Assembly (NCBI GenBank): GCA_039683575.1
Contig: JBDKRC010000278.1
Coordinates: 1 to 40,795, forward strand
From: Armatimonadia bacterium
GTDB lineage: Bacteria > Armatimonadota > Zipacnadia > Zipacnadales > UBA11051
Length of the DNA: 40,795 bases
Direction: 5' to 3'
Shown here piece by piece: positions 3,116 to 36,167 of this stretch; within the stretch, counting starts at the first letter, position 1, and the number at the start of each line of letters is the position of its first letter. The notes beneath the pieces were generated by a model. That model saw only the letters and a list, made by a program, of their open reading frames with translations. It had not been told where the DNA came from and searched no databases. The position numbers and the translations under genes were made by a program.

Positions 3116-3131
3116 CTGTCCCATACTCCGT

Positions 3132-6100: not shown

Positions 6101-6146
6101 GCGGTATAGCGGCAATGATCAGGGCAAGTGCGGCGATGAAGCGCAT
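3132..6146 (-). CDS. Secreted DUF4838-domain protein with CBM9-like (DOMON) and C-terminal CBM4/9-like domains (1004 aa)
   Basis: GGAGG RBS and signal peptide MRFIAALALIIAAIPPVAA. DUF4838 motifs HPEYYALVKG, QVCTSNPAV, SLSPNDGGGFCECDNC. CBM9-like motifs VDGLGTDAIW, DKDNLYVF, DDAVEVFI, WSAELAIPF, WKLNIFR. C-terminus FFHHPGEYWVDEIRIEEL parallels the downstream paralogue. Confidence 0.85.
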   Translation of the reverse strand: MRFIAALALIIAAIPPVAADDLTLVQNGASKYEIVVPDNATRPARFAAAELQSFVERSTGVKLPIVKLASPDKPHLFVGPSEASAAVGVKPDDLKPEGFHLKVVGQDIHLVGRDTDGDPTKISTNYPVQTGTLTAVYDFLERFLGVVFAWHDDLGTVVPHRETVTIPATDVTQNPAWAYRALSYSPEKATYALYGRRLRLGVAFTVQHSHNWFQILPVEKYGAEHPEYYALVKGERQARHYMGHHGGQVCTSNPAVIDLFAQAAIDYFKLYPDRDMFSLSPNDGGGFCECDNCRALDGGEFTKADPTIPVMTDRMIHFYNAIAEKVAKVYPDKKLGAYVYSYYQRPPIREKKIHPMLYLVQATNSAFGQGQGWPEEHEGEKKWVALTQHFDKYDIYYLGGPALHMMAPLTTHAIERLKAEQAIGLHGGYLYMGQAYEQLGAAHYLMARLMWDGKADARKLEKQYYDALYGPASADVKQYYDLLEGRLRKVLLGNETVDEPAVKALTTRYESMMCAGDMLAAYWPILGEAEKIIKQAEARPVSDLEKQRLARLRDHHDYMVSTVRGMIAAGRLESQASFNEQDVAMLKAAVDQREAAKARLAVHAPTMAEYLVEADKSETARVTTDGAFYQLTRNAKPLQLVATPTDKPVTVDGLGTDAIWRQAPTYYMLLAKSAVPTELGARASLACDKDNLYVFIAGREQDPAKIAKATTAHDSTKVFDDDAVEVFIQPSGTQAYYQIAVGAGGGLYDGAYPTGDASQGDVKWESGAKVATKIDQAGWSAELAIPFASFGVAPGEGWKLNIFRTRRGNAEPDEYTAVNPTFGGYHVPNRFAPLSFTAPAKPVTLDFGTMDNLLPAEAEKRLRLQVSQGATAEIVTDRAWCGGQALHLKVPQGGLAALTLTAAVKPKTGYRIVAAHYNTAVTINPSVRDQAPITRVICRDDTGKAVTETKDYSWDGAKATEKLDQWRQTPHVFTTPEGTTQISYTMFFHHPGEYWVDEIRIEEL

Positions 6147-8320: not shown

Positions 8321-11300
8321 TCACATGGACAGCAACTGCGGGGACGCCTGCAGCCCGCTGGACGGGTAGACCGGCGGCTTCGCGCCGGCGTACGTTCCCA
8401 GGATGATGTTCCCCAGAGTGTTGCTGACGCGGATCTCCAGATCGTTGTCCCCCTCGCGCAGCAGCCCGGTCAGGTCGAATACGTACGGCGGCCACGCCGT
8501 CTGGCCGGCCGACTCTCCGTTGACCAGGACCTCGACGGCGTCCATGGTCTCGGGCAACCGTAGCCAGAGCTTCTTCCCCGCCTCCGCCGCGAACTGCCGC
8601 CGGTATACGCCTACCCCTGCAATGTGCGGCATGCCCTGCGCTTCCCAGGGCCGATCCACGCGCACCTGCGGCACTGGCGCGAGCAGCGTCTGCCCTTGAA
8701 CGCGGAAGTCTCCAAGCAGCACCACCGGCTGCAATATGCGGTCGGCAGCGCCGCCAAGCGGCGCTATGCGCGCGTCGTTGTACTTGCTGGTCAGTACTCT
8801 GATATGAATCGTGTTGTCGCCTTCGTGGAGCAGCCCCTCTACATCATAGTGCAGATTCTCCTCTGTCCATAGCGGCGTGCACGCCACCTGCTCGGCCGGA
8901 CGGCCGTTCACGAAGACCTCAAGGAAGCTCGGGTTGTCCACCACGATCCGCTTCGGGTGCGCTCCGGCCTCACACTTCACCTCGGTCCGCAGCCAGTACC
9001 ACGGCGCGTCCCCCGGGCGGATTGCTTCGGGCAGCCGGTCGTCTTCCGGCGTAATCCAGCCCGCCTCGCTTGTGTCATGCTGCCACCCCTCCGCCGCGCC
9101 GGCATTCTGGGGGTCGGGTTTTGCCTGAACCGCCAGCCGTAGCATGTTGCCAGGCAGCAGGTCGAAGTCCCATTCCCCATCCAACTCAACGACGTTTGGC
9201 GCCTGCTGCCAGACGGGCAGCGCCGGCAGGTCCTCGCCCAACGCCACAGCGGCCGGGCCGCTAACGAGCAGGTAGCCCTGCCAGGGAGCGAAGCGCCAGC
9301 GGAACCCGCCCACTTCAACAGCGGGGCGGAAGGCCTGCAGGCTGAAGGGGTCAACTATGGCGAATGGCCCGTCGAGCGTCGTGTGGATGGTAACCTCGGC
9401 CTCTTGCCGGGCCATGTTCGCGAGGAACACCACGTCGCTGCCTGCGATCCTCCGCCACGAACTCACGAACTCACGGCGGCCTTCGCCCTCCAGCACCACC
9501 GGGGGCTGCGACTGGGTTGCCAGCGCCGCGCGCACCTCCGCGCCCGTCGCTCCGACCTGCACAACGTTGGCCTGAGCCAGCAGTTCACTGACTCCGTCAC
9601 CAAGGCTATCCAGGCTCTCCGCTTCATACTCCGGCAATGCCCCGCTGAAGACTACCCGTCCACCCGCTGCGGCGAACTGCTGCAGCACCTGCAGGCACCG
9701 CGCAGGCAGCCACTTGGCCGAGGGTACCACGATCACGCGGTACCGGCAGTTCTCAGTCACCAGTTCGTCCCCCTCCACCCGCGCCTCCGCGAGGATCGGC
9801 TCAAAGACGAAGTCGAACGTCCACTGCTCGCGGATCAGTTCGTCAAGCAGGTCGTAAACCTGCTCCTGCAGTGCTGCAAGTGGGTGCTGGGCCGGCAGTT
9901 CGAGCCAGCTCCTGCCTACCATCTGCGCATCCGACTGAGCCCACAGTGCCGAGCGCGGGTACAGGACGGCCACCTCGGCCACCGGCTCGCCCTCCGCGTG
10001 CAAGGCAGCCAGCCGCGCATTGTAGTCGGCATAGAGCTTGTAGTGCTGCCACCACGGCTGCGTGAAGTGCTTTCCGGCGATGGCGTACTTGCGGAAGTCG
10101 GCGATTGATGTGACCAGTGAATTGTCGTTGAACAACGTCACGCCGAGAGCCACCTGATAGTGGAAGCCTCGCTTCTGCCGCAGCAGGTTCATGCCCCAGT
10201 CGCACACCCCATACGCCTCGCTCATCATCTCCCTGGAGCCGTTGTGCCGACAGATGCTGTGCACGTACTTGCAGGTCAGGTGAAACGCCCGGCGGTCCAC
10301 TTGACCATAGAAGGTCATACTCTCGGGGTAAGTGAAGCCATCGGCATTGGCGAGCATGTCTATGCCCGGGATGGTGTAGTGCTTCATGGCCTCCCACAAG
10401 TCACCTTCCATCCTGACGTGCAGCGCTAGGGCCTCTTCGCCCAGACAGTGCCCTGTGAACGCCACTCCTTGCTCGTCGCACCAGCGCCGGATTGTGCCCG
10501 CGTAGCCCTCACTGTAGCGCTCCGCAACCAGCCGCCAGTAGTGGCACCTCGTCTGGGGCGCAGTCGGGGTGTCAGCCAGGAGATCGCCCAGGCGGTCCCT
10601 GAGGTCGTAGCCGTAGCGGCGCTGGAAGTCCTCGAACAGGTCATGGGTGTACGGGAAGGACAGCCACCCCTTCACCATGCGTGAGTTCGTGAAGCCCGGC
10701 TCATCGGTGAAGAAGCCAGGAATAGTCTCCGGGAACATCTCCGGGGCGTGGGCCAGGTACTTGCGGTGGGTGCTGTCCAGGAACCGTTCGCAGGCCTCCG
10801 CGCTCATCATGTCCAGATAGCCTGTCATGTTGGTGACCCAGTCACCATACCGGGCACTTGTGCGCCCCGCCTGTCCTTCGGCGGTGGCCCACTCGGCTCC
10901 GCCGGTATGGGACGTTTGTGTCACCTTTGGCGGCAGCCCCGGCGCTTCTGCGCTGTCGGCCTCGTCCCGCAGCCAGAGCAGGTGCTCGCGGGCCTCCGGG
11001 TGGTCGCGAATGAGTGTCCCCCCGCAGATGCCGCTGGGCCAGTTGTACTCGTCGTAAATCCAGCACTTCATGCCCGTGGCGCGGCAGTGCTCCAGGGTCT
11101 GCTTGACGCGCTCCCAGTATTCCAGCGACATGTACGCAAACTCCATGCCGTAGATCGGGAACAGGAAGAACTCAGTGATGCCTTTGGCGCGCATGTCGTC
11201 CAGTTGCGCCCTCAGGTCCTCCCAGTGCAAGTCTCCGGTCCAGGCCAGCCAGGGCACCGGCCGATAGCGATCAGGGGGGGTGGCGAGGGCCGACATCAGG

Positions 11301-11347
11301 TTCTGAGGCTGCAGCTTATCCCATAGAGGGGGGCGAAGGACACTCAT
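8321..11347 (-). CDS. GH106-like (alpha-L-rhamnosidase-like) glycoside hydrolase with C-terminal GH2-type sugar-binding domains (about 1008 aa)
   Basis: Motifs YRPVPWLAW, WIYDEYNWPSG, GFFTDEP, GHCLGEE, IPGIDML, MSEAYG..W, VAVLYP, and C-terminal VNGESAG..WPPY.FDLT...GDN.LEIRVSNTL. Start at ATG 11347 with GGGAGA RBS; the ORF track starts at 11416. No signal peptide. Confidence 0.8.
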   Translation of the reverse strand: MSVLRPPLWDKLQPQNLMSALATPPDRYRPVPWLAWTGDLHWEDLRAQLDDMRAKGITEFFLFPIYGMEFAYMSLEYWERVKQTLEHCRATGMKCWIYDEYNWPSGICGGTLIRDHPEAREHLLWLRDEADSAEAPGLPPKVTQTSHTGGAEWATAEGQAGRTSARYGDWVTNMTGYLDMMSAEACERFLDSTHRKYLAHAPEMFPETIPGFFTDEPGFTNSRMVKGWLSFPYTHDLFEDFQRRYGYDLRDRLGDLLADTPTAPQTRCHYWRLVAERYSEGYAGTIRRWCDEQGVAFTGHCLGEEALALHVRMEGDLWEAMKHYTIPGIDMLANADGFTYPESMTFYGQVDRRAFHLTCKYVHSICRHNGSREMMSEAYGVCDWGMNLLRQKRGFHYQVALGVTLFNDNSLVTSIADFRKYAIAGKHFTQPWWQHYKLYADYNARLAALHAEGEPVAEVAVLYPRSALWAQSDAQMVGRSWLELPAQHPLAALQEQVYDLLDELIREQWTFDFVFEPILAEARVEGDELVTENCRYRVIVVPSAKWLPARCLQVLQQFAAAGGRVVFSGALPEYEAESLDSLGDGVSELLAQANVVQVGATGAEVRAALATQSQPPVVLEGEGRREFVSSWRRIAGSDVVFLANMARQEAEVTIHTTLDGPFAIVDPFSLQAFRPAVEVGGFRWRFAPWQGYLLVSGPAAVALGEDLPALPVWQQAPNVVELDGEWDFDLLPGNMLRLAVQAKPDPQNAGAAEGWQHDTSEAGWITPEDDRLPEAIRPGDAPWYWLRTEVKCEAGAHPKRIVVDNPSFLEVFVNGRPAEQVACTPLWTEENLHYDVEGLLHEGDNTIHIRVLTSKYNDARIAPLGGAADRILQPVVLLGDFRVQGQTLLAPVPQVRVDRPWEAQGMPHIAGVGVYRRQFAAEAGKKLWLRLPETMDAVEVLVNGESAGQTAWPPYVFDLTGLLREGDNDLEIRVSNTLGNIILGTYAGAKPPVYPSSGLQASPQLLSM

Positions 11348-11422
11348 CGGGTTGTCTCCCTTAAGCGATCGTGGCGGTGCGGATTGATACCGCACGCCCT
11401 GCGATTGGGTACTCAAGTGCGG

Positions 11423-12190
11423 CTACTCGCGGCTCACCAGGCGCACCTGCAAGTCATACCGGTCCCCGCGCCACAAAGACCTCGAGTACTCTACCGGCGT
11501 GCCCTGCGCGTCGGCCAGGACGCCGGTGATGACGAATACCGGGTCACCGGTACGCACGGTCAGCAGGCCGGCCTCCTCGGCATCGGCGGCCCGGGTGCGG
11601 ATGGTCTGCTCAGAGGTCTTCAGGTCAAAGCCGTAGCGCGAGCGAAGGGTCTGGTAGAGAGACGCCGTCAGGTCGGCCGTTTGCAGGTCGGGGACCAGGC
11701 GGCAGGGGATGATGGAGGTTTCCGCGCTAACCGGCTCACCGTCCGCCAATCGCAGCCGTCGAACCTCCCACACCTCTTCCCCTTCGGTCAGCCCCAGCGC
11801 CCGTTGCGCCTGTGGACGCGCAGGGCCGCGGTCGAGACCCAGCAGCCGATATTCAGCGGCCCAGTGCTGGTCGCGCATGTGGCCGGCAATGGAGGACAGC
11901 TCCGTAAGGTTCAGTTCCACCCGCCTGCGGCGCATGAACGTACCGCGACCCTTCTCGCGGTAGATGAGCCCCTCGCGTTCAAGTATCTCGAAGGCATGGC
12001 GAACCGTGCCACGCGTCACCTCGAACTGCTCGGACAGCGCCGGTTCGGAGGGTAGCGCGATTTCCTCGCCCTCAGCGGCGCCCGCGCTGACGTCGTCCAT
12101 TGCCTCGCGCAGAATCTGGGCGAGCTGGTAGTAGTAGGGGATGGGGCTGTCCTTGTTGAGCTTGCGCCCGGCCAGGAGTTCATCTATCAT
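11423..12190 (-). CDS. GntR-family (HutC subfamily, UTRA domain) transcriptional regulator
   Basis: wHTH motifs PYYYQLAQIL, LPSEPALSEQFEVTRGTVRHAFEIL..EGLIYREKGRGTF. UTRA-type C-terminus RLRLADGEPV, SLYQTL, PVEYSRSLWRGDRY. Confidence 0.93.
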   Translation of the reverse strand: MIDELLAGRKLNKDSPIPYYYQLAQILREAMDDVSAGAAEGEEIALPSEPALSEQFEVTRGTVRHAFEILEREGLIYREKGRGTFMRRRRVELNLTELSSIAGHMRDQHWAAEYRLLGLDRGPARPQAQRALGLTEGEEVWEVRRLRLADGEPVSAETSIIPCRLVPDLQTADLTASLYQTLRSRYGFDLKTSEQTIRTRAADAEEAGLLTVRTGDPVFVITGVLADAQGTPVEYSRSLWRGDRYDLQVRLVSRE

Positions 12191-12207: not shown

Positions 12208-12221
12208 CTTCTCTGTACAAG
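12208..12221 (-). promoter_or_regulatory. Degenerate second HutC-type operator (CTTGTACAGAGAAG on the - strand) at the regulator's own promoter
   Basis: 11/14 match to the perfect palindrome at 12293-12306. It overlaps the end of the leftward -10 element. Confidence 0.6.
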
Positions 12222-12255: not shown

Positions 12256-12284
12256 TTGACAAGCACAAAGGGCTGTGTTAGCAT
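12256..12284 (+). promoter_or_regulatory. Rightward sigma70-type promoter for the catabolic operon
   Basis: Perfect TTGACA (12256-12261), 17-nt spacer, extended -10 TGtTAGCAT (12276-12284). Confidence 0.75.
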
Positions 12285-12292
12285 CAGGCCAG

Positions 12293-12306
12293 CTTGTATA
12301 TACAAG
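12293..12306. promoter_or_regulatory. HutC/GntR-type operator palindrome CTTGTATATACAAG
   Basis: Perfect 14-bp AT-rich palindrome just downstream of the -10 box, next to a HutC-subfamily regulator. It matches the TTGTA-TA-x-ACAA pattern known for HutC-type sites. Confidence 0.85.
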
Positions 12307-12329: not shown

Positions 12330-13304
12330 GTGGAGTCCGACCTGAGAATTGATGCCGCCACCACCAGCTTCAGCACCTGTGCCGACCGTTTCGTCAAGAG
12401 CGGGTACAAAGAGACCATATCCTTCCCCCGCCAACTGGAACTGCTGGCCTCCGTCCCCGGCATTACCGGTGTCGCGCTCGACTATCCTTCCCAATACGAT
12501 GATCCCGTCGCGCTGCGGGCGCTGCTAGACCCACTGGGACTCGAACTGGGCATGACCGAGATCGATATGTACTCCAGCGTGCGCTGGCAGTACGGCTCCC
12601 TCTCTTCCCTTGACGACTCCACCCGTACCGAGGCCATCGCGCTTGTGAAGTCTGGTATCGACGCCGCCGTCGAGGCACGGGGGGCTGACGTGCAGCTTTG
12701 GCTGGGACAGGATGGCTACGAATACCCCTTCGCCACTGACTACAACGAGGCATGGGCACGACTGGCCGACGCCGTGATCGAGATTGTCGAGTACCGCCCG
12801 GACATGAAGATCACCATCGAGTACAAGGCCAAGGAGCCCCGAACCAAGTGCTTCATCTCCACCGTCGGGCGGGCGCTGTACCTGTGCGAGCGGGCTGGCA
12901 AGGCCAACGCGGGCGTCACGCTGGATGTGGGGCACTCGCTCATGGCCGGCGAGAACCCTGCCGAGGCGGCGGTGATGGCTCTGCAGCGCGGACGGCTGTT
13001 CCACTTGCACCTGAATGACAACTACCGCGACTGGGACCACGACATGATCCCCGGCACGGTCAACCTTTGGGACAGCATCGAACTGTTCTATTGGCTCGAG
13101 CGCCTGGGGTTTGATGGCTGGTATGGCATCGACGTCTACCCGTACCGTGAAGACGGGGCAGCGACCCTGAATCGCACCGTGCAGAGCATCTACCGGTTCC
13201 GGGAGATTGCGCGGCGGCTGATCGCGGCGGGGCTGCCGGCGTTGCAGACGGGCGAGCGGGCGATTGAGGTTATCGATCTCGTTATGGCTGAAGTACTGAA
13301 GTGA
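12330..13304 (+). CDS. Xylose-isomerase-like TIM-barrel sugar isomerase (324 aa)
   Basis: GTG start at 12330 after GGAGGT. Motifs WLGQDGYEYPF, EYKAKEPR, TLDVGH, GENPAEA, FHLHLNDNYRDWDHDM, GIDVYPYRED, which carry the XylA/RhaA-type metal ligands. Confidence 0.85.
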   Translation: MESDLRIDAATTSFSTCADRFVKSGYKETISFPRQLELLASVPGITGVALDYPSQYDDPVALRALLDPLGLELGMTEIDMYSSVRWQYGSLSSLDDSTRTEAIALVKSGIDAAVEARGADVQLWLGQDGYEYPFATDYNEAWARLADAVIEIVEYRPDMKITIEYKAKEPRTKCFISTVGRALYLCERAGKANAGVTLDVGHSLMAGENPAEAAVMALQRGRLFHLHLNDNYRDWDHDMIPGTVNLWDSIELFYWLERLGFDGWYGIDVYPYREDGAATLNRTVQSIYRFREIARRLIAAGLPALQTGERAIEVIDLVMAEVLK

Positions 13305-13314
13305 GGTGACCGGT

Positions 13315-14649
13315 ATGGACCCGGTTTTGGAGCAAATCTATTCGCTTGATAGTGCCGCGATAGAGCAGTGCGGCCGACATGTGATGCTCGGAGGCGGCAC
13401 CCGCGGCGGCCCCGTGTTGGTGCGTGGCAAGGGCGTGCGTGTGTGGGACACGGCGGGCAAGGACTACCTCGACTGCACCTCGCAGAGCTGGGCGCTGTAC
13501 CTGGGCTACGCGCACGATGGTATCAACTCGGTCATCCGCGAGCACATTGAGAACCTGACCCACACCCATCAGGGCTTCGACACGCTCCCCCGCTTCTATC
13601 TCGCGCGGCGGCTGGCCGAACTGGCGCCCGGCGACTTGAACCGCGTCTCCTTCACCGTCGGCGGCGGGCCGGCGATTGAGGCGGCGATGAAGATCGCGAT
13701 CAAAAACACCGAACTGGCCCGCGATTTTGTGTGCCTGTACGACAGCTACCACGGTACGACGCTGGGCACGATGGGCGCCTCGTGGATCTCAACCCACGCC
13801 GCCGGGAGCTACGTAGGTGGTAGCCGTTTCCTGGGCCTGACCCGCCCCTTCATTCGCATACCCAACCCCTACACCTACCGTAACCCGCTCGGCATGGGGG
13901 CGGAGGAATACACCAGCCTTTGCCTGGCGATGGCGCGGGAGACCTTCGAGCGCGGCATCGCGGGGCGGCCCGCCGGTGTGATAGTGGAGCCTATCCAGGC
14001 CAGCGCCGGGCAGATCATCCTGCCCAAGCGCTATCTGCAGGGCCTGCGCGAACTCTGCGATGAGTTCCAGACGTTACTGATCTTCGATGAGATACAGACC
14101 TTTGCCCGCATTGGCGAGATGTTCGCCGCGGACTATTTCGGAGTGACGCCGGACATTCTCGTGCTCGGCAAGGGCCTCGGTGCCGGGCTGCCACTGGCAG
14201 GGATCATCATCCGCGACGGGCTGGAGGGCTTCGCTCCGGACAGCGAAGAGCTTCATACCTTCGCTAACCCCTCCCTCTCGATGGTCACGTCGGCCAAGCT
14301 CCTGGCGCTGCTGGAAGAGGGTGTCCTGGCGAACTGCCGGGAGATGGGTGGTTACCTGGGGGCGGGCCTGAAAGCCATGATGGCTGACTTCCCCGAGATC
14401 GGGGACGTGCGGCAGGCGGGACTGCACATCGGCGTTGAATTCGTCCGCGATCCCGAGACCCGCGAGCCGCTGGAGCAGCAAACCGTGGCCATCCGCAACG
14501 AGGGCCTGGAACGCGGGGTCATCTTTGGTCTCGGCGGCGTGCGCAAGAACGTGCTCAAGGTCAAGCCCCCGCTGATCGTCGACCGCGCCGAAGCGGACGA
14601 GATTCTGGAGCGTTTCGCAGCCTCGGTGCAGGCGGTACTGCGGGCGTAG
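13315..14649 (+). CDS. Class III PLP-dependent aminotransferase (444 aa)
   Basis: ATG at 13315 after GAGGTG. Motifs GKGVRVWD..GKDYLD, AIEAAMKIA, SYHGTT, IVEPIQ, LIFDEIQT, PDILVLGKGLGAGLP, GDVRQAGL.IGVEFV, KPPLIV. Confidence 0.92.
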   Translation: MDPVLEQIYSLDSAAIEQCGRHVMLGGGTRGGPVLVRGKGVRVWDTAGKDYLDCTSQSWALYLGYAHDGINSVIREHIENLTHTHQGFDTLPRFYLARRLAELAPGDLNRVSFTVGGGPAIEAAMKIAIKNTELARDFVCLYDSYHGTTLGTMGASWISTHAAGSYVGGSRFLGLTRPFIRIPNPYTYRNPLGMGAEEYTSLCLAMARETFERGIAGRPAGVIVEPIQASAGQIILPKRYLQGLRELCDEFQTLLIFDEIQTFARIGEMFAADYFGVTPDILVLGKGLGAGLPLAGIIIRDGLEGFAPDSEELHTFANPSLSMVTSAKLLALLEEGVLANCREMGGYLGAGLKAMMADFPEIGDVRQAGLHIGVEFVRDPETREPLEQQTVAIRNEGLERGVIFGLGGVRKNVLKVKPPLIVDRAEADEILERFAASVQAVLRA

Positions 14650-14659
14650 GAGGTCCATC

Positions 14660-15430
14660 ATGCTGGCGATCGAGCTCAGCGGAGCAGTGACTCTGGTTAT
14701 CGGCGGCTCGCGCGGCATCGGAGCCGCCATTTGCCGCAGCGCGGCGCAGGCGGGCGGGGACGTGGCCTGGACCCATACCGATAGTCCCGCCGGCCTCGCC
14801 GCCAGTGAGGCGCTTGAGGCCGAAATCGCGGCGACGGGCCAACGGTGCGTCCATGCCGCCGTCGACGCCTGCGACGAGACTGCCACCGCCAGCTTTGTGC
14901 AGCGGGTTATTGCCACTCTGGGGCGACTCGACCACCTCGTCTACAATGCTGGCTATACCTCGCCGGTGCCCCTCGCCGACCTCACCGTCAGTGAGTGGCG
15001 GCAGAACGTGGACCTGAACCTCACCGGCGCCTTCATCGCCGTCCAGGCCGCCCTTCCCGAACTGCGCCAGCGGCGCGGCAGCATCGTTCTGATCGGCTCC
15101 GCCGCGATCTATACCGGAGGCGGCGGGCGAGCCGACTATGTCTCTGGCAAGGCCGGGTTGGAGGGACTCTGCCGTGCCATCGCGAAGGATATGGCGCCCG
15201 CGGGGGTGCGCTGCAACGTCGTGCACCCGTCGCTCGTAGAGACCGACCTGCTCACAGTCCGCTACCCCGACCCCGCCGACCGGGAGAAGGTGGCTGCGCA
15301 GGTCCCGTTGCGGCGTCTCGGGCAACCGCGTGATATCGCCGCTCTGACCGTCTTCCTGCTCTCAGACCTGGCCTCCTACATAACCGGCCAGTCGGTACTG
15401 GTAGACGGCGGACGGACTTTCCATCGTTAG
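14660..15430 (+). CDS. SDR-family NAD(P)-dependent oxidoreductase (256 aa)
   Basis: GGAGG RBS. Motifs GGSRGIG, NAG, YVSGK (YxxxK), GVRCNVVHP, ASYITGQSVLVDGG. Confidence 0.92.
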   Translation: MLAIELSGAVTLVIGGSRGIGAAICRSAAQAGGDVAWTHTDSPAGLAASEALEAEIAATGQRCVHAAVDACDETATASFVQRVIATLGRLDHLVYNAGYTSPVPLADLTVSEWRQNVDLNLTGAFIAVQAALPELRQRRGSIVLIGSAAIYTGGGGRADYVSGKAGLEGLCRAIAKDMAPAGVRCNVVHPSLVETDLLTVRYPDPADREKVAAQVPLRRLGQPRDIAALTVFLLSDLASYITGQSVLVDGGRTFHR

Positions 15431-15439
15431 GTGATAACC

Positions 15440-16915
15440 TTGAGCAACTCGTCAGTGACTCTCGCCGCCATCGATCTAGGGGCCAGCAGTGGTCGCGTAA
15501 TCGTCGGTCAGCTTGCCGGCGGACGCCTGGACCTGACGGAGGTCCACCGCTTTGGCCATGAGCCGCAGCAGGTGGGCTCGACTCTCCGCTGGGACTGGGC
15601 AACCTTGCTGGCGGGCGTGCACGCCGGTCTGCGCGAGGCCACCGAACGCTTCGGCCCCCCGGCCGCAGTCAGTTGCGACTCGTGGGCCGTGGACTTCGGT
15701 CTCCTCGACGCCGCAGGCAAGCTGCTCGAACCGCCCGCCTGCTACCGGGATCAGCGCACCAACGGCATGCCGCAGAGCTTCTCGGATATCATCCCCCCCG
15801 ATGATCTAGTCGCGCGCGTGGGCGCGATGGCCCTGCCGATCATCACGCTATGCCAATTGCGGTATATGGCGCAGTACGAGCTGGACACACTGACGCAGGC
15901 ACGCTCTCTCCTGCACATCTCCGACCTCATTCACCAGGACCTCACGGGCGTGGCCGCCACCGACCGCACCATGGCGACCGCCTCGGGCCTCCGCAGTCTC
16001 GCGGGCGACGACTGGGATCGCGATCTGCTGCAGTCCCTGGGCATTCCCACCCATTTTCTGCCCTCCTGCCTGGACCATCCGGCCATCCTGGGCACGATCC
16101 CTGCCGACCGCGCGCCGCACCCAGACCTGGCCGGCCTGCCCGTGATCTCGACCGCCGGGCACGACACCGCCGCGGCCTCGGTAGTCTCCCCGCGCGAGGA
16201 TCATGTCTTTCTCAGTTGCGGTACCTGGTCGATGCTCGGCACGCTCAGTGCCCAGCCGGTCGTCACCCCGACCATGGCCACAGACATGCTCGAGAGCATC
16301 GGCGCGGGCAACGGCGGCTGGCTGCTAATGTGCCCCCTGACGGGGCTATGGCCCTTGCAGCAGTGCATGCTGCAGTGGCGCAAGTCGGGCGAGGCGGATT
16401 CGTGGGGCGAGCTAATCGCGGCCGCAGGGGCGATCACTGGGCCGATCTCGACGCTTGTAGATGTTGGCCACCCGCTCATCACCGGCCCTGGCGACATGAT
16501 TGCGGCGATCGCCAACTACTGCTCGCGCACCGGCCAGACCGCCCCTTCGTCCGCACCCGAGATGACCCGGGTACTCCTGCAAAGCCTCGCCCTCGAACAC
16601 TTCCTGGGCGTCGAGAGCCAGCAGCGCACCACTGGACGGCAATTCACGGCCATGCGACTGGTCGGCGGCGGCAGCGCTAACGCGCTGCTTTGCCAGTGGA
16701 CTGCGGATGCCATCGGCCTGCCAGTGATCGCCGGCCCCATGGAAGCCACAGCACTGGGCAACATGCTCCTGCAGGCCCAGGTGCTGGGCCTGATCGGTGA
16801 CGACGTCTCCGGCATCGTCGAGGCCTCTGCACCCGCCATGGTCTATCAGCCGCAGGCTGCACCCGACGCAGGGCTCGTAGCCCGCTACCGCGACCTGAAG
16901 GAGAAGCAGGCCTGA
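15440..16915 (+). CDS. Rhamnulokinase/fuculokinase-like FGGY carbohydrate kinase
   Basis: Motifs AIDLGASSGRV, DSWAVDFGLLD, YRDQRT, GHDTAAA, FLSCGTWSMLG, VGGGSANALLCQWTADA, AGPMEATALGN. Start is TTG 15440 (AGGTGA upstream) or GTG 15431. Confidence 0.88.
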   Translation: MSNSSVTLAAIDLGASSGRVIVGQLAGGRLDLTEVHRFGHEPQQVGSTLRWDWATLLAGVHAGLREATERFGPPAAVSCDSWAVDFGLLDAAGKLLEPPACYRDQRTNGMPQSFSDIIPPDDLVARVGAMALPIITLCQLRYMAQYELDTLTQARSLLHISDLIHQDLTGVAATDRTMATASGLRSLAGDDWDRDLLQSLGIPTHFLPSCLDHPAILGTIPADRAPHPDLAGLPVISTAGHDTAAASVVSPREDHVFLSCGTWSMLGTLSAQPVVTPTMATDMLESIGAGNGGWLLMCPLTGLWPLQQCMLQWRKSGEADSWGELIAAAGAITGPISTLVDVGHPLITGPGDMIAAIANYCSRTGQTAPSSAPEMTRVLLQSLALEHFLGVESQQRTTGRQFTAMRLVGGGSANALLCQWTADAIGLPVIAGPMEATALGNMLLQAQVLGLIGDDVSGIVEASAPAMVYQPQAAPDAGLVARYRDLKEKQA

Positions 16916-18354
16916 TGCATACTGGCGAGGCCCTGCAGCGGGTGGGAGAGCTTAGGAACACGTACGGCAGCGCCACCGCGGCGCTGCCGTGGCTGGATGC
17001 GTGCCGCGATGAGGACGATCCGCCGGCATTTCCTACCTATGCGACGGACCTCCGCCTGCCAGCGGTCCCGAGAGTGCTCGCGGGTACAGCGCTGCCCTCG
17101 TCTGGGCCGCTGCTGGCCGTGTATGCCCCGCAGTGCGGTCCGCTGGAAACCGTGGCGGCGGACTGCGCGCGAACCCGGACACCACTCGTCATTCGCCATA
17201 CGGATATTGACCTCCCGCGCCTCGGTGATTTAGCGCAGGTGCATCCTGCCCTGCCTCTGGTCATCGAGTCCGGCCCCCTGAAGCTCCTGTACCACATTGC
17301 GGTTATTGAGAGGCTCCTCCAGGCCAACCCCAACCTCTGGCTGTGCACCTACAACCTCTGTAACTGGCTGGGGCTGGAACGCCTCTGTGCTGCCGGAGTG
17401 GGAGACAGGCTGCTTTTTGGCACGCATGGACCACGTTACGACGCCCATGTCTCGATGGCGCCGGTGGCGCTGGCACAGTTGACCTGGGATCAGAAGTGTG
17501 ACCTGGCGGGGAACAACTTGCGGCGTCTGCTGGGTTTGTCAGCGGTGTCCGCGCCGCAGCCCTCCGCTGCCATCTGTGACGCGCCTGCGGCGTTTATCAT
17601 CGACAGCCACGGCCACAACGGCCCGCCCGGCAAATTCCCCACTCCCGATGAGCACTTCGCGCCGGCAGACTGGCTGCGGTTCATGGATGGCTCCGCCATC
17701 GAGCGTCTCTACCTCACGCCCATGGCAGCGATTGATGACCCGGCGGGCAGCAGCCGGCAGGCGACCTCGGCTCTGCTTGAGGCGGCCCCGGATCGTTTCC
17801 GGTACTATACGGTGTTCCATCCCGGTGGAGACGTGGAGGAGTTGGGGGCTGAGGTTGATAACCCCCTCTGCGCTGGCATCAAGATCCACCCTTCGATGCA
17901 CGGGGTGCCCGCGGACGACCCCGCCTACCGCGCGGCCTTTGAGGTGTCTGCGCGCGTCGGCAAGCCGGTGCTAACCCACTCCTGGGAGAACTCGCCCACC
18001 AACCCGACGCAGCACCTATCTCACCCGAAGCGGTTCGAGGTCCACTTGCGTGCTTGTCCGGGAGCTCGGCTGATCCTCGGCCATGCCGGAGGCCGTCCCT
18101 CTACCGCCGAGACAGTGGTCGACCTGTGCAGGCGCTACCCCCAGGTCGTCGTGGACCTGGCGGGCGACTACTTCGACAGTGGTCTGGTGGCAATGCTGTG
18201 CGACCGCATCGGCCCACGGCGCGTGCTGTTCGCCAGTGACATGAACTGGATCGATCCGCGCTGCCTGCTCGGCGCAGTGTTAGGGTCGCGATTGTCAGAT
18301 GACGACGTCATGGGCTGCCTGCGCGGCAATGCCCTGGCCTTCTTTGGTCAGTGA
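16915..18354 (+). CDS. Amidohydrolase_2-family protein with tandem (degenerate plus intact) TIM-barrel domains (479 aa)
   Basis: TGATG overlap with the kinase stop. The N-half ends in DRLLFGT..P...GNNLRRLL. The C-half has IIDSHGH, GIKIHP, VLTHS, ILGHAGG, RVLFASD, GNALAFF. Confidence 0.8.
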   Translation: MHTGEALQRVGELRNTYGSATAALPWLDACRDEDDPPAFPTYATDLRLPAVPRVLAGTALPSSGPLLAVYAPQCGPLETVAADCARTRTPLVIRHTDIDLPRLGDLAQVHPALPLVIESGPLKLLYHIAVIERLLQANPNLWLCTYNLCNWLGLERLCAAGVGDRLLFGTHGPRYDAHVSMAPVALAQLTWDQKCDLAGNNLRRLLGLSAVSAPQPSAAICDAPAAFIIDSHGHNGPPGKFPTPDEHFAPADWLRFMDGSAIERLYLTPMAAIDDPAGSSRQATSALLEAAPDRFRYYTVFHPGGDVEELGAEVDNPLCAGIKIHPSMHGVPADDPAYRAAFEVSARVGKPVLTHSWENSPTNPTQHLSHPKRFEVHLRACPGARLILGHAGGRPSTAETVVDLCRRYPQVVVDLAGDYFDSGLVAMLCDRIGPRRVLFASDMNWIDPRCLLGAVLGSRLSDDDVMGCLRGNALAFFGQ

Positions 18355-18384: not shown

Positions 18385-19539
18385 TCAACGCGCTCTCGCC
18401 TTGGCATCAATCTCCCCGATCTTGAACCGAACACTCATGATGAACGGCTCCTCGCCCTCAATCCAGTGCCCGTAGGTTGTGACCACGAACGTCCCGTCGG
18501 GCAATAGCTCGACTGCGGGGTAGGCGCAATCGCCGCCCTGCTTGTTGTCCATCAGACGCACGCGGTACTGTCCCTCCCGCCCCTCGACGATGTCCTCATA
18601 GGTGCCTATCCAGCCGACCCAATCACCCTGTGTGGGGCTCTGGCGTGTCGTGTCGCGGAAACTGACGAATAGCCGCCCGTCAGGGGCATACAGCGCCTGG
18701 TGGCGGTCGCCCGTCAGTGCCGCCGGTAGTTCGCGCGGCGGGGTCCACGTGCTGCCCTCGTCGTTGCTAAAGATGACAAAGGAGTTGTAGCGCCGGCTGT
18801 TTTCACGCAGCAGCAGGGCGATCTGGCGCCCGTCGGGCGACCTCACCGCGCCGGGCTCGCAAAGGTGAGCGGCCGGATGCTCGGCGATCGCGGCGGGCTC
18901 GCCCCAGGTCAAGCCGCCGTCGCTGGAGAGGGTCTTGTACACGCGAAACCGCATATCCGTGCCCTGGGCCTTCAGGAAGCGTCCGTCGTCGTGGAAGAAG
19001 GCCATGTAGCGTCCGTCCAGCAGGCGAAGGCAGTCGGCCATGGCGACGATGCCGCCGAAGTCGCCGACGGGCGCCAACGGTGACCAGGTCTCACCTTCGT
19101 CCTCGGAGACGGCCATGCGTATGGGATACAGTCCCGAGAACATGATCAACCGTCGGTTTCCCTGGGGATCGACCGTCGGATAGACTGTCGGGACCTCCAG
19201 CGAGGTGGCCCAGTTCTCCGGCACCGGCAGACGGTCGCTCCAAGTGAGGCCACCGTCAGCGCTCCTTTTCATCATGATGGCGCCGCGCCCGTGCCCCTTT
19301 GGGTAGACTGCGATGAGCGTTTTCCCATCCTCCAGGAGCACCGTCGTCGGGTGGCCGAGGTACTGGCCGGGCTCGCGGTCCACAATGACCTGCCGGGCAG
19401 TCTCATCCGCGAGGTCGATGAGAGGGATTGTATAGCCAGGCGCCTGAGTCGAGACAGGAGCGTCACTGCTTTGTGCAGGCATAGGAACCTCCAGGGTCAA
19501 GCAACATACAATCGATGCGCGGATTGCGGCCGCCATCAT
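18385..19539 (-). CDS. BNR/Asp-box beta-propeller, sialidase-like protein
   Basis: YLGHPTTVLL, Asp boxes SADGGLTWS, SEDEGETWS, SSDGGLTWG and SNDEGSTWT, LCEP, DCAYP. Start is ATG 19539/19536 (signal-peptide-like) or ATG 19482 (own GGAGG). Confidence 0.85.
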   Translation of the reverse strand: MMAAAIRASIVCCLTLEVPMPAQSSDAPVSTQAPGYTIPLIDLADETARQVIVDREPGQYLGHPTTVLLEDGKTLIAVYPKGHGRGAIMMKRSADGGLTWSDRLPVPENWATSLEVPTVYPTVDPQGNRRLIMFSGLYPIRMAVSEDEGETWSPLAPVGDFGGIVAMADCLRLLDGRYMAFFHDDGRFLKAQGTDMRFRVYKTLSSDGGLTWGEPAAIAEHPAAHLCEPGAVRSPDGRQIALLLRENSRRYNSFVIFSNDEGSTWTPPRELPAALTGDRHQALYAPDGRLFVSFRDTTRQSPTQGDWVGWIGTYEDIVEGREGQYRVRLMDNKQGGDCAYPAVELLPDGTFVVTTYGHWIEGEEPFIMSVRFKIGEIDAKARAR

Positions 19540-19568: not shown

Positions 19569-20378
19569 TCACACAAACATCTCGTTGGGGCGCTCGACGG
19601 GCTCGTAGACCGAGACGTCCAGACGTGCCAGTTGCTCGAGCGTGGGCACAAGCACGCCCAGAGCGCCCTCGATCATCCTCTCACCGGCCTCCGCGGTCGC
19701 CAGCTTCGGGTCGCCCACATAGCCGTGCCCGCGGGTGACCCAGCACCAGTCGGGGAAGATGCTGGCCTGGGCCGGCGCCTCGAAGGCATAGCGCCGGGCC
19801 TCGTTCTCAGGTGGGTTGGTCTCCATCCACGTGTACTGCGGGTTCAGCGCCAGATTCAGCGACGTCTCGGAGGCGCAGCCGTGCCCGCAACTCTTCTCCC
19901 CGAATCCGCCCCAGTTCATGCCGGCGGTGACCATGTAGTGGAAGCAGTACAGGCCCGGGTATTCGCGCTCCAGGCTGTGGGCGATCACCGGAACGATTGA
20001 GCTGTTGCCGCCATGCATGTTGAAGATAAGCAGCTTGCGGAACCCGTCACGCGCCAGGCAGCCGGCGATGTCCATGAACTGTGCCATGAGCGTGCTCTCG
20101 GTAACGCCGATGTTGCCCGGGTAGACAGGATTGCGCTCGTGGCCATGTTGCAGCACGATGGCGTACTTGATGGTGGGCAAGATGACGAGGTTAGCGTCGG
20201 TGGCCACGCGGTCCGCGGCGCGTTGCAGAACCCCCTCCCCCACCAGCGGGTCCGCGCAAAGCGACAGGTGTGGCCCGTGGGTCTCGATGGAGGCGACCCC
20301 GATTACAGCCGTGTCGCAGGTCTGTAGGAACTTCTCGTACTCGGGTGAACTGAAGGACTCGACATAGCGGGCAGGCAT
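19569..20378 (-). CDS. Creatininase-family amidohydrolase (269 aa)
   Basis: GAGG RBS. Motifs SIETHGPHL...D, FNMHGGN, GHGCASETS, GYVGDP.LATAEAGE. Confidence 0.88.
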   Translation of the reverse strand: MPARYVESFSSPEYEKFLQTCDTAVIGVASIETHGPHLSLCADPLVGEGVLQRAADRVATDANLVILPTIKYAIVLQHGHERNPVYPGNIGVTESTLMAQFMDIAGCLARDGFRKLLIFNMHGGNSSIVPVIAHSLEREYPGLYCFHYMVTAGMNWGGFGEKSCGHGCASETSLNLALNPQYTWMETNPPENEARRYAFEAPAQASIFPDWCWVTRGHGYVGDPKLATAEAGERMIEGALGVLVPTLEQLARLDVSVYEPVERPNEMFV

Positions 20379-23560: not shown

Positions 23561-24664
23561 ATGGGCGGCTCTCTTCAGGCTGAGCATGGGATCATCTGTC
23601 GTTTGCCGGGGGAGCGTTTGGGGTATTTCGGTTGGCCTACAGTAGCCCGCATGGACGATGGTATGCTGGTGGTGGCCAGTTCTGGGCTGCGCTCGGAGCA
23701 CGTGTGCCCCTGGGGCAAGACCGTCCTCAACACGAGTACTGATGACGGCCGCACCTGGTCACCGCCGCGGGTGATACAGGATTCGCCGATTGACGATCGT
23801 GATGCCGGCGTGGTCAACCTCGGCGGCGATAGTCTGCTCACAACGTGGTTCCGCTCCGACACCCGCGAGTACGCCGCAGCCTCCTGGCTTCCCGAGGCCG
23901 AACGCGCAAGCTGGACCGAGGTCCTGAGCACCTGGACCGATGAGATGGTAGACGCGCTGCTCGGCTCGTGGGCCATGCGCAGTGAGGACAAAGGCGTCAC
24001 CTGGAGCGACCCCATTCGCGTTCCGGTGACGACACCACACGGCCCGATCCGGCTGCGGTCAGGCGATTTGCTTTATCTGGGCAAGCTGTACAGTTATTGG
24101 GAAGAGCGGGTGGAGGGCATGGTCGCCGCCTGCCTCAGCCGCGATCAGGGGCTGACGTGGGAGATTCTGGGCACTGTGCCGGTGCACCCGGACACAGATC
24201 CAGTCAACTACCATGAGCCTCATGTGCTGGAGCTGCCGTCCGGGCGCCTGCTGGGGGTAATTCGCATTCAGGACCATAGTGGCAAGACCCTCGACACTGC
24301 GGGCATACCCAACTTCAGCATGATGCTGACCGAATCGGACGACGGCGGCCGCACTTGGACCACCGCGCGCCCCCTCGGCTTCCACGGATCGCCGCCGCAC
24401 CTCCTGCGCCACTCCTCGGGCGTCATCATCCTTACCTACGGCTACCGGCTCGCTCCGTGGGGACAGCGCGTAGCCTTGAGCCACGACGACGGCGCCACAT
24501 GGGACCACGACTGGATCATCCGCGACGATGGCCCGGACAGTGACCTGGGGTACCCCTCGACTGTACAGATGGCGGACGGCTCGCTGTTCACCGTCTGCTA
24601 CCAGAAGGTGCCTGGGGACGCTAAGTGCTCCCTGCTATGGTCGCGTTGGGAACTGCCGGGCTAG
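23561..24664 (+). CDS. BNR/Asp-box sialidase-like protein, cytoplasmic (367 aa)
   Basis: GGAGGT RBS. YFGWPTVARM, five Asp boxes (STDDGRTWS, SEDKGVTWS, SRDQGLTWE, SDDGGRTWT, SHDDGATWD), HEPH, DLGYPS. Confidence 0.88.
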   Translation: MGGSLQAEHGIICRLPGERLGYFGWPTVARMDDGMLVVASSGLRSEHVCPWGKTVLNTSTDDGRTWSPPRVIQDSPIDDRDAGVVNLGGDSLLTTWFRSDTREYAAASWLPEAERASWTEVLSTWTDEMVDALLGSWAMRSEDKGVTWSDPIRVPVTTPHGPIRLRSGDLLYLGKLYSYWEERVEGMVAACLSRDQGLTWEILGTVPVHPDTDPVNYHEPHVLELPSGRLLGVIRIQDHSGKTLDTAGIPNFSMMLTESDDGGRTWTTARPLGFHGSPPHLLRHSSGVIILTYGYRLAPWGQRVALSHDDGATWDHDWIIRDDGPDSDLGYPSTVQMADGSLFTVCYQKVPGDAKCSLLWSRWELPG

Positions 24665-35835: not shown

Positions 35836-36114
35836 GTGTTCGACTGGAATCTGCTCTTCCTGCGGACTCTCCAGGAGGCCGGCAGGTTCACGGACTTGGG
35901 TCGATGCTTGGTGCGATTGCTGGTGGACATCGGCGGCTTCTCCGTGCTGAGTCCGTCCGCGCAGCTTCAGTGCGTCATCAGCCTGGACGGTTGCGTGAGG
36001 GTGGCCGCCCGCCGGACGCACCCCTTCGTCAAGCCGGGGGCCTCAAGCTGCGACAGGGCGGGCGCACACCGACCGGGTAGACAAGGGACATCAGCCCCCG
36101 CTGGCGAACCATGA
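35836..36114 (+). pseudogene. Possible remnant of a class III nucleotidyl cyclase domain
   Basis: The short ORF contains LLVDIGGFSVLSPSAQLQCVISLDGCVRVAA, resembling the first Asp strand and helix of adenylate/guanylate cyclases. It has no in-frame GD motif. Confidence 0.3.
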
Positions 36115-36167
36115 GGCTGGTGGTATGAACTCCCGCGTGCCAGACAGGCCAGAAAGGGAACCTGCTG

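Follow-up and report, generated by a model that had tools for sequence, protein, structure and literature searches.

Contig JBDKRC010000278.1 of an Armatimonadia bacterium (assembly GCA_039683575.1; 40,795 nucleotides, hereafter the window) carries a five-gene operon that encodes an isomerase, a class III aminotransferase, a short-chain dehydrogenase/reductase (SDR), an FGGY kinase and an Amidohydro_2 protein. Each of these enzyme families is known; for the combination, and the chemistry it implies, we found no description in the full-text literature searched. The gene set recurs across phyla, and its aminotransferase is kin to aminotransferases of sugar phosphates. We interpret this enzyme as a member of a sugar-directed branch of the class III enzymes. 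We tentatively propose that the operon is a repressor-controlled system for the catabolism of an amino (deoxy) sugar, an account to which we give slightly less than an even chance.

The operon and its divergent partner

The operon, the divergent genes and the candidate control sites between them are as follows.

12330–13304, plus strand: isomerase, AP_endonuc_2 / xylose-isomerase-like TIM barrel (Pfam E 2.6e-25)
13315–14649, plus strand: class III aminotransferase, Aminotran_3 (Pfam E 6.6e-72)
14660–15430, plus strand: classical SDR, adh_short_C2 (Pfam E 8.8e-55)
15431–16915, plus strand: FGGY kinase, FGGY_N and FGGY_C (Pfam)
16915–18354, plus strand: tandem Amidohydro_2 (PF04909) protein (Pfam E 1.8e-17, 64.5 bits, residues 229–478 only)
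11423–12190, minus strand: GntR/HutC-type regulator with a UTRA domain (Pfam UTRA 6e-42, GntR 1.7e-13)
8321–11416, minus strand: glycoside hydrolase family 106 (GH106)-like enzyme, 1031-aa open reading frame (ORF) (Pfam and predicted fold)
12256–12284, plus strand: sigma-70-like promoter, TTGACA-17-TAGCAT with a TG extension (consensus match only)
12293–12306: perfect 14-bp palindrome CTTGTATATACAAG, candidate HutC-family operator, directly after the -10 element
12208–12221: degenerate copy of the palindrome with 3 mismatches, adjoining the regulator start

The five plus-strand genes at 12330–18354 are tightly packed, as the original prediction had described. The junctions, read directly, are gaps of 10, 10 and 0 nt followed by a TGATG overlap. 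The isomerase starts at GTG 12330 with GGAGG 7 nt ahead and stops at 13302–13304. Ten nucleotides later the aminotransferase begins at ATG 13315, preceded by GAGGTGA, and runs to its stop at 14647–14649; this start yields 444 aa, the usual length in its family. The SDR follows after another 10-nt gap (ATG 14660 with GGAGG ahead, stop 15428–15430), and the kinase GTG at 15431 abuts it directly, with alternative in-frame starts at 15440 and 15455. The kinase stop (16913–16915) shares TGATG with the Amidohydro_2 ATG at 16915. Base composition of the window is ~63–66% G+C.

On the minus strand, and again as first described, a GntR/UTRA regulator is followed by the GH106-like gene. Because the latter trails the regulator on the same strand, we treat the two as one divergent unit. 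The regulator has both the GntR winged helix and the UTRA domain, and it scores under every NCBIfam equivalog cutoff (PhnF, HutC, TreR). A single operator had been proposed to control the operon, and the perfect palindrome does precede it as a candidate site, accompanied by the degenerate copy. Two palindrome matches were found against 0.21 expected, a number reached in 3 of 100 shuffles, and CTTGTATATACAAG has what we take to be the form of a GntR-family operator. The promoter-like site is weak taken alone, with 1 found and 1.0 expected from shuffles.

A class III aminotransferase outside the curated families

The aminotransferase is a full-length PF00202 member (242.8 bits over residues 38–439) and thus a fold-type I pyridoxal phosphate (PLP) enzyme. 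In the PDB it matches dialkylglycine decarboxylase (2e-53) and amino-acid racemases of archaea best. The segment LGKGLGAG, which holds the PLP lysine, aligns with LSKTLGAG of dialkylglycine decarboxylase, while the carboxylate-binding arginine of that enzyme (in VFRIAPPL) is replaced by lysine (in NVLKVKPPL). In dialkylglycine decarboxylase these two residues are presumably K272 and R406.

The enzyme scores under the cutoff of all 69 NCBIfam families that it touches, the best at 245 against 574 bits. Among the others, GabT models give 188–200 against 507–676, ArgD 193 against 410, DABA-AT 209 against 671, BioA 206 against 405 and the PbfA lyase 236 against 525. No taurine transaminase family is among the 25 listed of the 69 matching families, and the taurine:2-oxoglutarate aminotransferase in the PDB (6jix) matches only at 1.3e-41. 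The original prediction had allowed that the enzyme might group with gamma-aminobutyrate (GABA) or ornithine transaminases; it reaches no curated model. Because these models all fall below cutoff and the gene surroundings are sugar-related, we reject a GABA-, ornithine- or taurine-type transaminase.

The family is strongly conserved, with its 120 best clusters 70–100% identical to the window protein. Few of them carry labels; those that do at more than 70% identity name Armatimonadetes/Armatimonadota, Planctomycetota, Phycisphaerae and Cyclobacteriaceae, and one homologue labelled 'Armatimonadetes' is 79% identical. Source names go no further than 'aspartate aminotransferase family' or 'GABA aminotransferase-like'. 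No close annotated relative was found in the plasmid collection, where the best tblastn match is 37.9% identical. An apparent fusion protein, P0256 (1048 aa, marine sediment metagenome), was rejected: only residues 1–304 are aminotransferase, the remainder matches nothing in Pfam or the locus set, and the entry is probably a faulty gene model.

The gene set recurs across phyla

We scanned genomes with the aminotransferase and kept the best 80 of 601 stretches, a small and non-exhaustive sample whose loci we designate by L numbers. Counts below refer to the 16 loci whose aminotransferase is at least 44% identical to that of the window; six of these loci come from contigs under 5.4 kb. Neighbours were called by tblastn, by Pfam on 98 ORFs of 12 related loci, and by all-against-all clustering.

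The original prediction had named co-occurrence of the five genes in other genomes as a test, and the set does recur across phyla: L009 and L031 have all five functions, and L003, L005 and L008 have four. L008 belongs to a cultured bacterium, Paenibacillus eucommiae DSM 26048, and brings together the kinase, aminotransferase, isomerase, a split Amidohydro_2 protein, an ABC transporter and the GH106-like gene. The aminotransferase is usually adjoined by an NAD(P) oxidoreductase, which fits an exchange of amine, ketone and alcohol. An SDR homologue is present in 8 of the 16 loci; in 6 it adjoins the aminotransferase gene, which it overlaps by 4 nt in L003. Immediately upstream of the L004 aminotransferase, a GFO/IDH/MocA oxidoreductase takes the SDR's place, and L002 has a 2-hydroxyacid dehydrogenase two genes downstream of its aminotransferase.

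An isomerase is found in seven loci. It is of the TIM-barrel type in L008, L010, L012 and L031 and AraA-like in L003, L005 and L009, and the two never occur together. This swapping of unrelated types, a non-orthologous replacement, implies that an aldose–ketose step is required. RhaB-like kinases occur in four loci (L005, L008, L009, L031), with a XylB/GntK-like FGGY kinase in L002; Amidohydro_2 genes in four (L003, L008, L009, L031); and GH106-like homologues beside the aminotransferase in four (L004, L007, L008 and, truncated, L003). In 11 of the 120 listed aminotransferase clusters, the longest contig is equal in size to that of one of 113 Amidohydro_2 matches, which gives indirect support.

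Regulators are of the DeoR type in 6 of the 16 loci and of the GntR/UTRA type in 1. Binding-protein or ABC-transporter genes accompany the aminotransferase in five (L002, L006, L008, L010, L031). The binding protein of L010 resembles ribose-binding proteins, which points to a ligand of monosaccharide size and nothing more.

As a separate observation, a URO-D / MtaA-like (methyltransferase-like) gene adjoins the aminotransferase in L010 (1218–2477, minus strand), L022 (3377–3913, plus strand) and L031 (7716–8819, minus strand); it is absent from the window.

Kinship with azasugar aminotransferases

A quick maximum-likelihood tree, rooted at its midpoint only, placed the window aminotransferase among its relatives. 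Its 76 rows comprise the window and 75 of the 80 loci; L001, L004, L005, L012 and L076 were left out for short or interrupted matches. The window enzyme falls in a clade of 20 rows, with a support of 99 in the Shimodaira–Hasegawa-like approximate likelihood ratio test (SH-aLRT). That clade is sister (SH-aLRT 93) to one of 14 rows (SH-aLRT 100), and the other 42 rows lie opposite.

Sugar or amino-sugar neighbourhoods surround the aminotransferase clade at every flank-annotated locus except L011 and L013. Seven rows of the window's own clade, 37–42% identical to it, sit in other sugar contexts. L016 and L020 (41%) have GH20-like and apiosidase-like glycosidases, an NAD epimerase/dehydratase-family protein and a zinc-dependent (Zn-) dehydrogenase near the aminotransferase; L019 (42%) has a sugar ABC system and an SDR; L014 and L015 (37–38%) have an FGGY kinase, SIS or M20 proteins and a DegT aminotransferase; and L017 and L018 have a SIS protein.

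The sister clade holds all eight of the three-gene clusters that we found (L023, L026, L027, L029, L030, L032, L033 and L035; aminotransferases 32–36% identical to that of the window). In these an IMPase-family phosphatase lies directly downstream of the aminotransferase and a Zn-dehydrogenase within 5 kb, straight after the phosphatase in six of the eight. When the L027 phosphatase and dehydrogenase were used as tblastn queries, both were found in those eight loci only. The clusters come from Streptomyces spp., a Pseudonocardiaceae metagenome-assembled genome (MAG), Anaerobacterium chartisolvens DSM 27016 and Bradyrhizobium jicamae. A GH35/GlmA-like gene follows the cluster in L027. According to the available text of PMC8382821, aminotransferase, phosphatase and dehydrogenase together are a signature of azasugar biosynthesis, in which the aminotransferase aminates C2 of fructose-6-phosphate.

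The lysine that replaces the carboxylate-binding arginine tracks this kinship. Its motif was located by pattern in 45 of the 76 loci and not in the other 31. Lysine occupies the position in 17 of 17 motif-bearing loci at 36.7% identity or more and in 10 of 11 at 32.4–36% (glutamate in the eleventh), and arginine occupies it in 17 of 17 at 31% or less. The azasugar consensus given in the available text of PMC8382821, SGNxFRxxxFPNxxxxxxxLxVPxPYCxRC, was found in full in none of the 14 aminotransferases tested, the window's included, and L027 differs from it in spacing. Its end, VPxPYCxRC, is complete in L008 (Paenibacillus) and L019 and partial in the window (IPNPYTYRN). Neither an IMPase-type phosphatase nor a Zn-dehydrogenase was found in the scanned window ORFs (19 of the 37 that reach at least 200 aa).

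The partner enzymes

Pfam upheld the families first assigned to the isomerase, aminotransferase, SDR and kinase. The isomerase most resembles an uncharacterised structure, 3ktc (1.4e-47); xylose isomerases of Streptomyces (1e-20) and the L-rhamnose isomerase of P. stutzeri (1e-11) rank behind it. At the xylose isomerase positions E181, K183, E217, H220, D245, D255, D257 and D287 it has E, K, D, H, H, D, D and D. All metal and catalytic positions that the alignment covers are thus occupied; the N-terminal catalytic histidine lies outside the alignment. The metal-ligand pattern (E, D, H, H, D, D, D) matches what we take to be the set of the P. stutzeri L-rhamnose isomerase. Curated equivalog models stay below cutoff (xylA_Arthro 91 against 447 bits, RhaI_grampos 70 against 531). 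Its residues and matches mark the protein as a two-metal aldose–ketose isomerase of the xylose/L-rhamnose isomerase TIM-barrel type.

The kinase matches E. coli RhaB (2cgj, 7e-60) and FucK (4c23, 5.9e-59), with gluconate kinase next at 2.8e-11, and it too falls below the rhamnulokinase models (TIGR02627 290.5 against 528; PRK10640 266 against 639). By these similarities it is an FGGY kinase of the rhamnulokinase/fuculokinase branch, RhaB and FucK being equally near. The SDR finds its best PDB match in 7b81/7do5-7 at 8.8e-42, slightly ahead of FabG; we take these entries to be L-rhamnose 1-dehydrogenase. Against the NCBIfam L-rhamnose 1-dehydrogenase model Lra1 it scores 179 bits, with a cutoff of 400.

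The Amidohydro_2 protein consists of a degenerate N-terminal half (residues 1–228) and a catalytic C-terminal half (229–479). The metal ligands of the family's HxH...H...H...D pattern are present as H232, H234, H355, H390 and D442, and D230, H232, H234, K323, H325, H355, H390 and D442 are invariant in 42 aligned sequences. Language-model features liken the N-terminal half to Amidohydro_2 as well (score 0.93), which we take as a lead only. In L008 and in L031, an Atribacterota MAG, each half has a gene of its own, with the N-terminal half encoded twice in L031; we thus regard the protein as a unit of two parts, which the window has in fused form. A homologue labelled 'Armatimonadia bacterium' is 96% identical.

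The AlphaFold2 model of this protein is confident, with a predicted local distance difference test (pLDDT) score of 95.2. Its Foldseek neighbours are ACMSD-type decarboxylases, the LigJ hydratase, the LigY C–C hydrolase and uncharacterised Amidohydro_2 proteins. A single-sequence search returned no PDB match, a profile search gave remote ones only, and LigI is among the sequence and fold neighbours. NCBIfam yielded no match. In particular, the fuconolactonase model is not matched by the window protein, and its insignificant hits were to two short paralogues only (E 0.085 and 0.12). L-fucono- and L-rhamnono-lactonases belong to the Amidohydro_2 family. The 'amidohydrolase' of the original prediction is thus no NagA-type enzyme; it is an Amidohydro_2 (PF04909) protein with a degenerate N-terminal half. 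It is a predicted metal hydrolase that may act as a deacylase, a lactonase, a C–C hydrolase or a phosphoester hydrolase.

The GH106-like gene has its probable start at ATG 11347, and its product has an N-terminus without an obvious signal peptide. By sequence the first assignment is marginal: Pfam GH106 gives a borderline 30.9 bits against a cutoff of 29 with no single stretch passing alone, the NCBIfam BT4145 rhamnosidase model gives 77.5 against 1300, and phmmer against the PDB matched only the C-terminal jelly roll. Structure comparison upholds the overall multidomain fold. The AlphaFold2 model (pLDDT 90.8, from a 47-sequence alignment) matches the GH106 rhamnosidases 6q2f (E 7.6e-40, template modelling (TM) score 0.59) and BT_0986 (5mqm, 1.2e-32, TM 0.53) over their whole length at 12–14% identity; the next Foldseek match is a GH42 enzyme at 1e-18. 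The family is large; 1892 of its representatives score E 1e-30 or better.

A catabolic reading and its alternatives

The importers, the cytoplasmic glycosidases and the DeoR/GntR/LacI repressors in these neighbourhoods favour catabolism. The similarities of the kinase, isomerase and SDR, together with the GH106 fold, point to L-rhamnose-like (6-deoxy-L-hexose) geometry. The genes and their layout, the recurrence across phyla, the family and fold of each protein and the kinship of the aminotransferase are observed here; the catabolic direction, the amine substrate, its 6-deoxy-L character and the sequence of steps are our inference. The substrate would most likely be an amino sugar of the 6-deoxy-L-hexose type, with or without its N-acyl group, that the GH106-like glycosidase releases in the cytoplasm from an oligosaccharide taken up by the cell; perosamine, viosamine or Ara4N, which the original prediction named as candidates, are guesses. 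The aminotransferase and its partner oxidoreductase would convert the amine to a carbonyl and then to a hydroxyl, or would take these steps the other way round on an intermediate already reduced. The RhaI/XylA-like isomerase and RhaB/FucK-like kinase would deliver a ketose 1-phosphate, and a phosphorylated intermediate would release the repressor, of the HutC type here and the DeoR type elsewhere. The aminotransferase may use the kinase's phosphorylated product rather than the free sugar, since its nearest functionally known relatives use fructose-6-phosphate. That these relatives act on a sugar phosphate, and in the aminating direction, allows both a kinase-before-aminotransferase order and a biosynthetic alternative.

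The original prediction of amino-sugar catabolism is thus partly supported, by the recurrence, the non-GABA aminotransferase, the neighbouring oxidoreductase and the GH106 fold, and loses its deacylation step. That step had been given to the 'amidohydrolase'; because the nearest structures are decarboxylases, a hydratase and a C–C hydrolase, the N-deacylation link is unsupported, and we know of no deacylase in the Amidohydro_2 family. This loss weighs against catabolism of an amino sugar, as do several further points. The amine on the substrate is inferred. The aminotransferases of the sister clade serve biosynthesis and add an amino group. According to the available text of PMC8154272, some class III enzymes are lyases or racemases, and one is a decarboxylase. 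The neighbourhood is not constant: in L002, whose aminotransferase is 68% identical, genes for a FrlB-like SIS protein, a cyclase-family hydrolase, a dihydrodipicolinate synthase (DHDPS)-type protein and a 2-hydroxyacid dehydrogenase take the place of the usual partners, and in L011 and L013 no sugar isomerase, kinase or other partner stands alongside. The L004 aminotransferase (10001–11334) aligns at 78% over residues 1–443 and its frame ends at 11071 (356 aa), the interruption being a frameshift or an assembly error. Finally, no aldolase was found in the 19 scanned window ORFs or, apart from the DHDPS-type protein of L002, in the 98 ORFs of the 12 related loci, and the fate of the ketose 1-phosphate is therefore unaccounted for.

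The same genes could also serve synthesis of an azasugar or aminopolyol from a salvaged glycan-derived (6-deoxy) sugar, which we consider unlikely. The isomerase and kinase would make a ketose phosphate from the aldose, the aminotransferase would aminate its keto group as GabT1 does with fructose-6-phosphate, the metal hydrolase would remove the phosphate, and the SDR would oxidise a hydroxyl, with cyclisation to a glycosidase-inhibiting iminosugar. The sister relation to the clade with the eight three-gene clusters (SH-aLRT 93) argues for this, and so do the lysine-for-arginine exchange common to both clades and the VPxPYCxRC end, full in L008 and partial in the window. The trio of aminotransferase, dehydrogenase and hydrolase also parallels that of aminotransferase, dehydrogenase and phosphatase. 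Yet the full consensus is missing from all 14 aminotransferases tested, identity to those of the three-gene clusters is just 32–36%, and the scanned window ORFs include no IMPase-type phosphatase or Zn-dehydrogenase. Transporters in five loci, catabolic glycosidases and DeoR/GntR/LacI repressors are company of a catabolic type, and we know of no Amidohydro_2 protein that is a phosphatase. A further step along this line, in our view rather unlikely, is that glycan degraders of several phyla turn a GH106-freed 6-deoxy sugar into an aminopolyol or iminosugar that blocks competitors' glycosidases; the operon would then be a sugar-induced, extended relative of the azasugar three-gene cluster.

Two other accounts keep a catabolic direction. 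In one, which strikes us as fairly improbable, the operon would serve a neutral 6-deoxyhexose, L-rhamnose: the glycosidase would free it, the isomerase and kinase would convert it to rhamnulose 1-phosphate, and the aminotransferase would have a side role. To replace an aldolase, the SDR would oxidise C4 and the Amidohydro_2 protein would cleave the resulting beta-diketone to dihydroxyacetone phosphate and lactate. The LRA5 and LRA6 steps of the non-phosphorylative pathway offer an analogue for such a cleavage. The GH106 fold, the RhaB/FucK-like kinase, the RhaI-like isomerase and an SDR near L-rhamnose 1-dehydrogenase fit this account, as do the lack of an aldolase among the scanned ORFs and the presence of the LigY C–C hydrolase among the structural relatives of the Amidohydro_2 protein. 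But the diketone chemistry is our own construction, the isomerase, kinase and SDR all score under the rhamnose-pathway cutoffs, and the aminotransferase is left without a task even though it is the most conserved, defining gene (>70% identical across phyla) and has an SDR homologue adjacent to it in 6 of 16 loci. In the other account, quite improbable to our minds, the SDR would oxidise C1 of a 2-amino sugar, the Amidohydro_2 protein would open the lactone, the aminotransferase would deaminate the 2-amino-aldonate, an alpha-amino acid, and the 2-keto-aldonate would be reduced and then phosphorylated. The SDR does resemble sugar 1-dehydrogenases, sugar lactonases are among the members of the Amidohydro_2 family, the best PDB matches of the aminotransferase (dialkylglycine decarboxylase and the Ala/Ser racemase) use alpha-amino acids, and the 68%-identical aminotransferase of L002 is accompanied by a GntK/XylB-like FGGY kinase and by a 2-hydroxyacid dehydrogenase. 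However, the aminotransferase lacks the carboxylate-binding arginine, and it is hard to see what an aldose–ketose isomerase, found in two unrelated types, and a 1-kinase of the RhaB/FucK type would do with an aldonate. A lyase or racemase role for the aminotransferase falls within the remaining probability, with the caveat that it could be a phospho-lyase, the kinase being paired with a class III lyase as for ethanolamine phosphate.

Relation to described pathways

The original prediction had found no described pathway to match, and we likewise found none with this gene set in the full-text literature searched, whose coverage ends short of subscription-only papers and supplementary files. Four known systems share parts of it.

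The azasugar three-gene cluster of Bacillus and Streptomyces (GabT1, the Yktc1 phosphatase and GutB1) likewise joins a class III aminotransferase with an NAD(P) dehydrogenase and a hydrolase. The two aminotransferase clades, sisters in our quick tree, share the lysine for arginine in N-V-x-K-x-K/R-P-P-L and part of VPxPYCxRC, a piece of the consensus of PMC8382821. In contrast to that cluster, the window has an SDR in place of a zinc-dependent medium-chain dehydrogenase/reductase and an Amidohydro_2 protein in place of an IMPase-type hydrolase. It adds a sugar isomerase, an FGGY kinase, a glycosidase and a catabolic-type repressor, and the related loci add transporter genes. Unlike in the azasugar cluster, the aminotransferase here probably works in the deaminating direction.

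With phosphorylative L-rhamnose and L-fucose catabolism (RhaA/RhaI, RhaB, RhaD; FucI, FucK, FucA) the operon shares an isomerase and a kinase of the RhaB/FucK branch. The GH106-fold glycosidase of the window and the DeoR-type regulators of related loci are also like those of rhamnose and fucose systems. Unlike that pathway, the operon has no class II aldolase (RhaD/FucA), and it adds the aminotransferase, SDR and Amidohydro_2 protein. The non-phosphorylative L-rhamnose/L-fucose pathway uses the Lra1 dehydrogenase and an Amidohydro_2-type lactonase, to which the Lra1-resembling SDR and the Amidohydro_2 protein of the operon correspond, whereas the dehydratase and the 2-keto-3-deoxy-L-rhamnonate (KDR) aldolase or hydrolase of that pathway are missing from the window operon.

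Catabolism by NagA and NagB (AgaS) presumably shares the purpose of the operon, which is to strip a glycan-derived amino sugar of its N-acyl and amino groups. The NagR and DasR regulators are of the HutC/UTRA type, like the regulator in the window. None of the 19 scanned window ORFs matched a Pfam family known to us to include NagA, NagB or SIS deaminases. In contrast to the NagA/NagB route, deamination in the window would consist of transamination plus reduction, and SIS proteins appear only in L002 and in remoter aminotransferase clades.

Other genes of the window

Further glycan-related genes lie on both sides of the operon and its divergent unit. Two of them encode DUF4838 proteins.

266–3145, minus strand: DUF4838 glycosidase-like gene (Pfam 2.7e-45)
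3132–6146, minus strand: DUF4838 glycosidase-like gene (Pfam 6.2e-45)

Beside these two copies in the window, three adjoin the aminotransferase cluster in L003. In GH163 and GH185 the DUF4838 domain is the catalytic one and makes use of the substrate's own 2-acetamido group, according to the available text of PMC10570127. We regard these genes as context, not as a demonstrated part of the operon's pathway; as glycosidase domains of HexNAc type close to the aminotransferase genes they agree with an amino-sugar substrate.

On the 3' side of the operon stand two BNR/sialidase-like propeller genes and a creatininase-family gene (18385–19539, minus strand; 19569–20378, minus strand; 23561–24664, plus strand). 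The creatininase-family gene matches creatininase, MftE and IolN, each under cutoff, and was not found in the related loci. Since its family holds amide hydrolases, it is an alternative candidate for a deacylase. Between 20593 and 23196 (minus strand) lies a gene for an 867-aa protein that matches nothing in Pfam or NCBIfam; a homologue with 23% identity occurs near the aminotransferase in L004 (1792–4611, plus strand), and the protein may be another uncharacterised glycan-active enzyme.

Further on, a 2808-aa ORF (25960–34386, minus strand) has two GH94 supersandwich stretches, a GH94 catalytic domain and a glucoamylase-like domain, an arrangement that we take to resemble cyclic beta-1,2-glucan synthases. 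A 1445-aa ORF (36168–40505, plus strand) combines CBM9, a Rha78A-like Ig domain and C-terminal domains of the FlgD_ig/CHU_C type, which Pfam describes as a type IX secretion signal. An opposite-strand ORF (35967–37673) overlaps it.

Implications

Rare and 6-deoxy amino sugars are common in bacterial surface glycans, and these glycans hold much carbon and nitrogen in the biomass of dead microbes. In the full-text literature searched we found no catabolic route for free amino sugars beyond N-acetylglucosamine, N-acetylgalactosamine, N-acetylmannosamine and sialic acids, and none for fucosamine, quinovosamine, rhamnosamine or perosamine. If the operon does degrade an amino (deoxy) sugar, a transaminase-based route would fill this gap in amino-sugar catabolism, and it would assign a function to a widespread, highly conserved aminotransferase family and roles to the GH106-like family. 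Whether the pathway is catabolic or biosynthetic, the lysine-for-arginine signature would be a simple marker for sugar-directed class III aminotransferases. If the operon instead makes an iminosugar, production of such compounds would be far wider than the known Bacillus and Streptomyces clusters.

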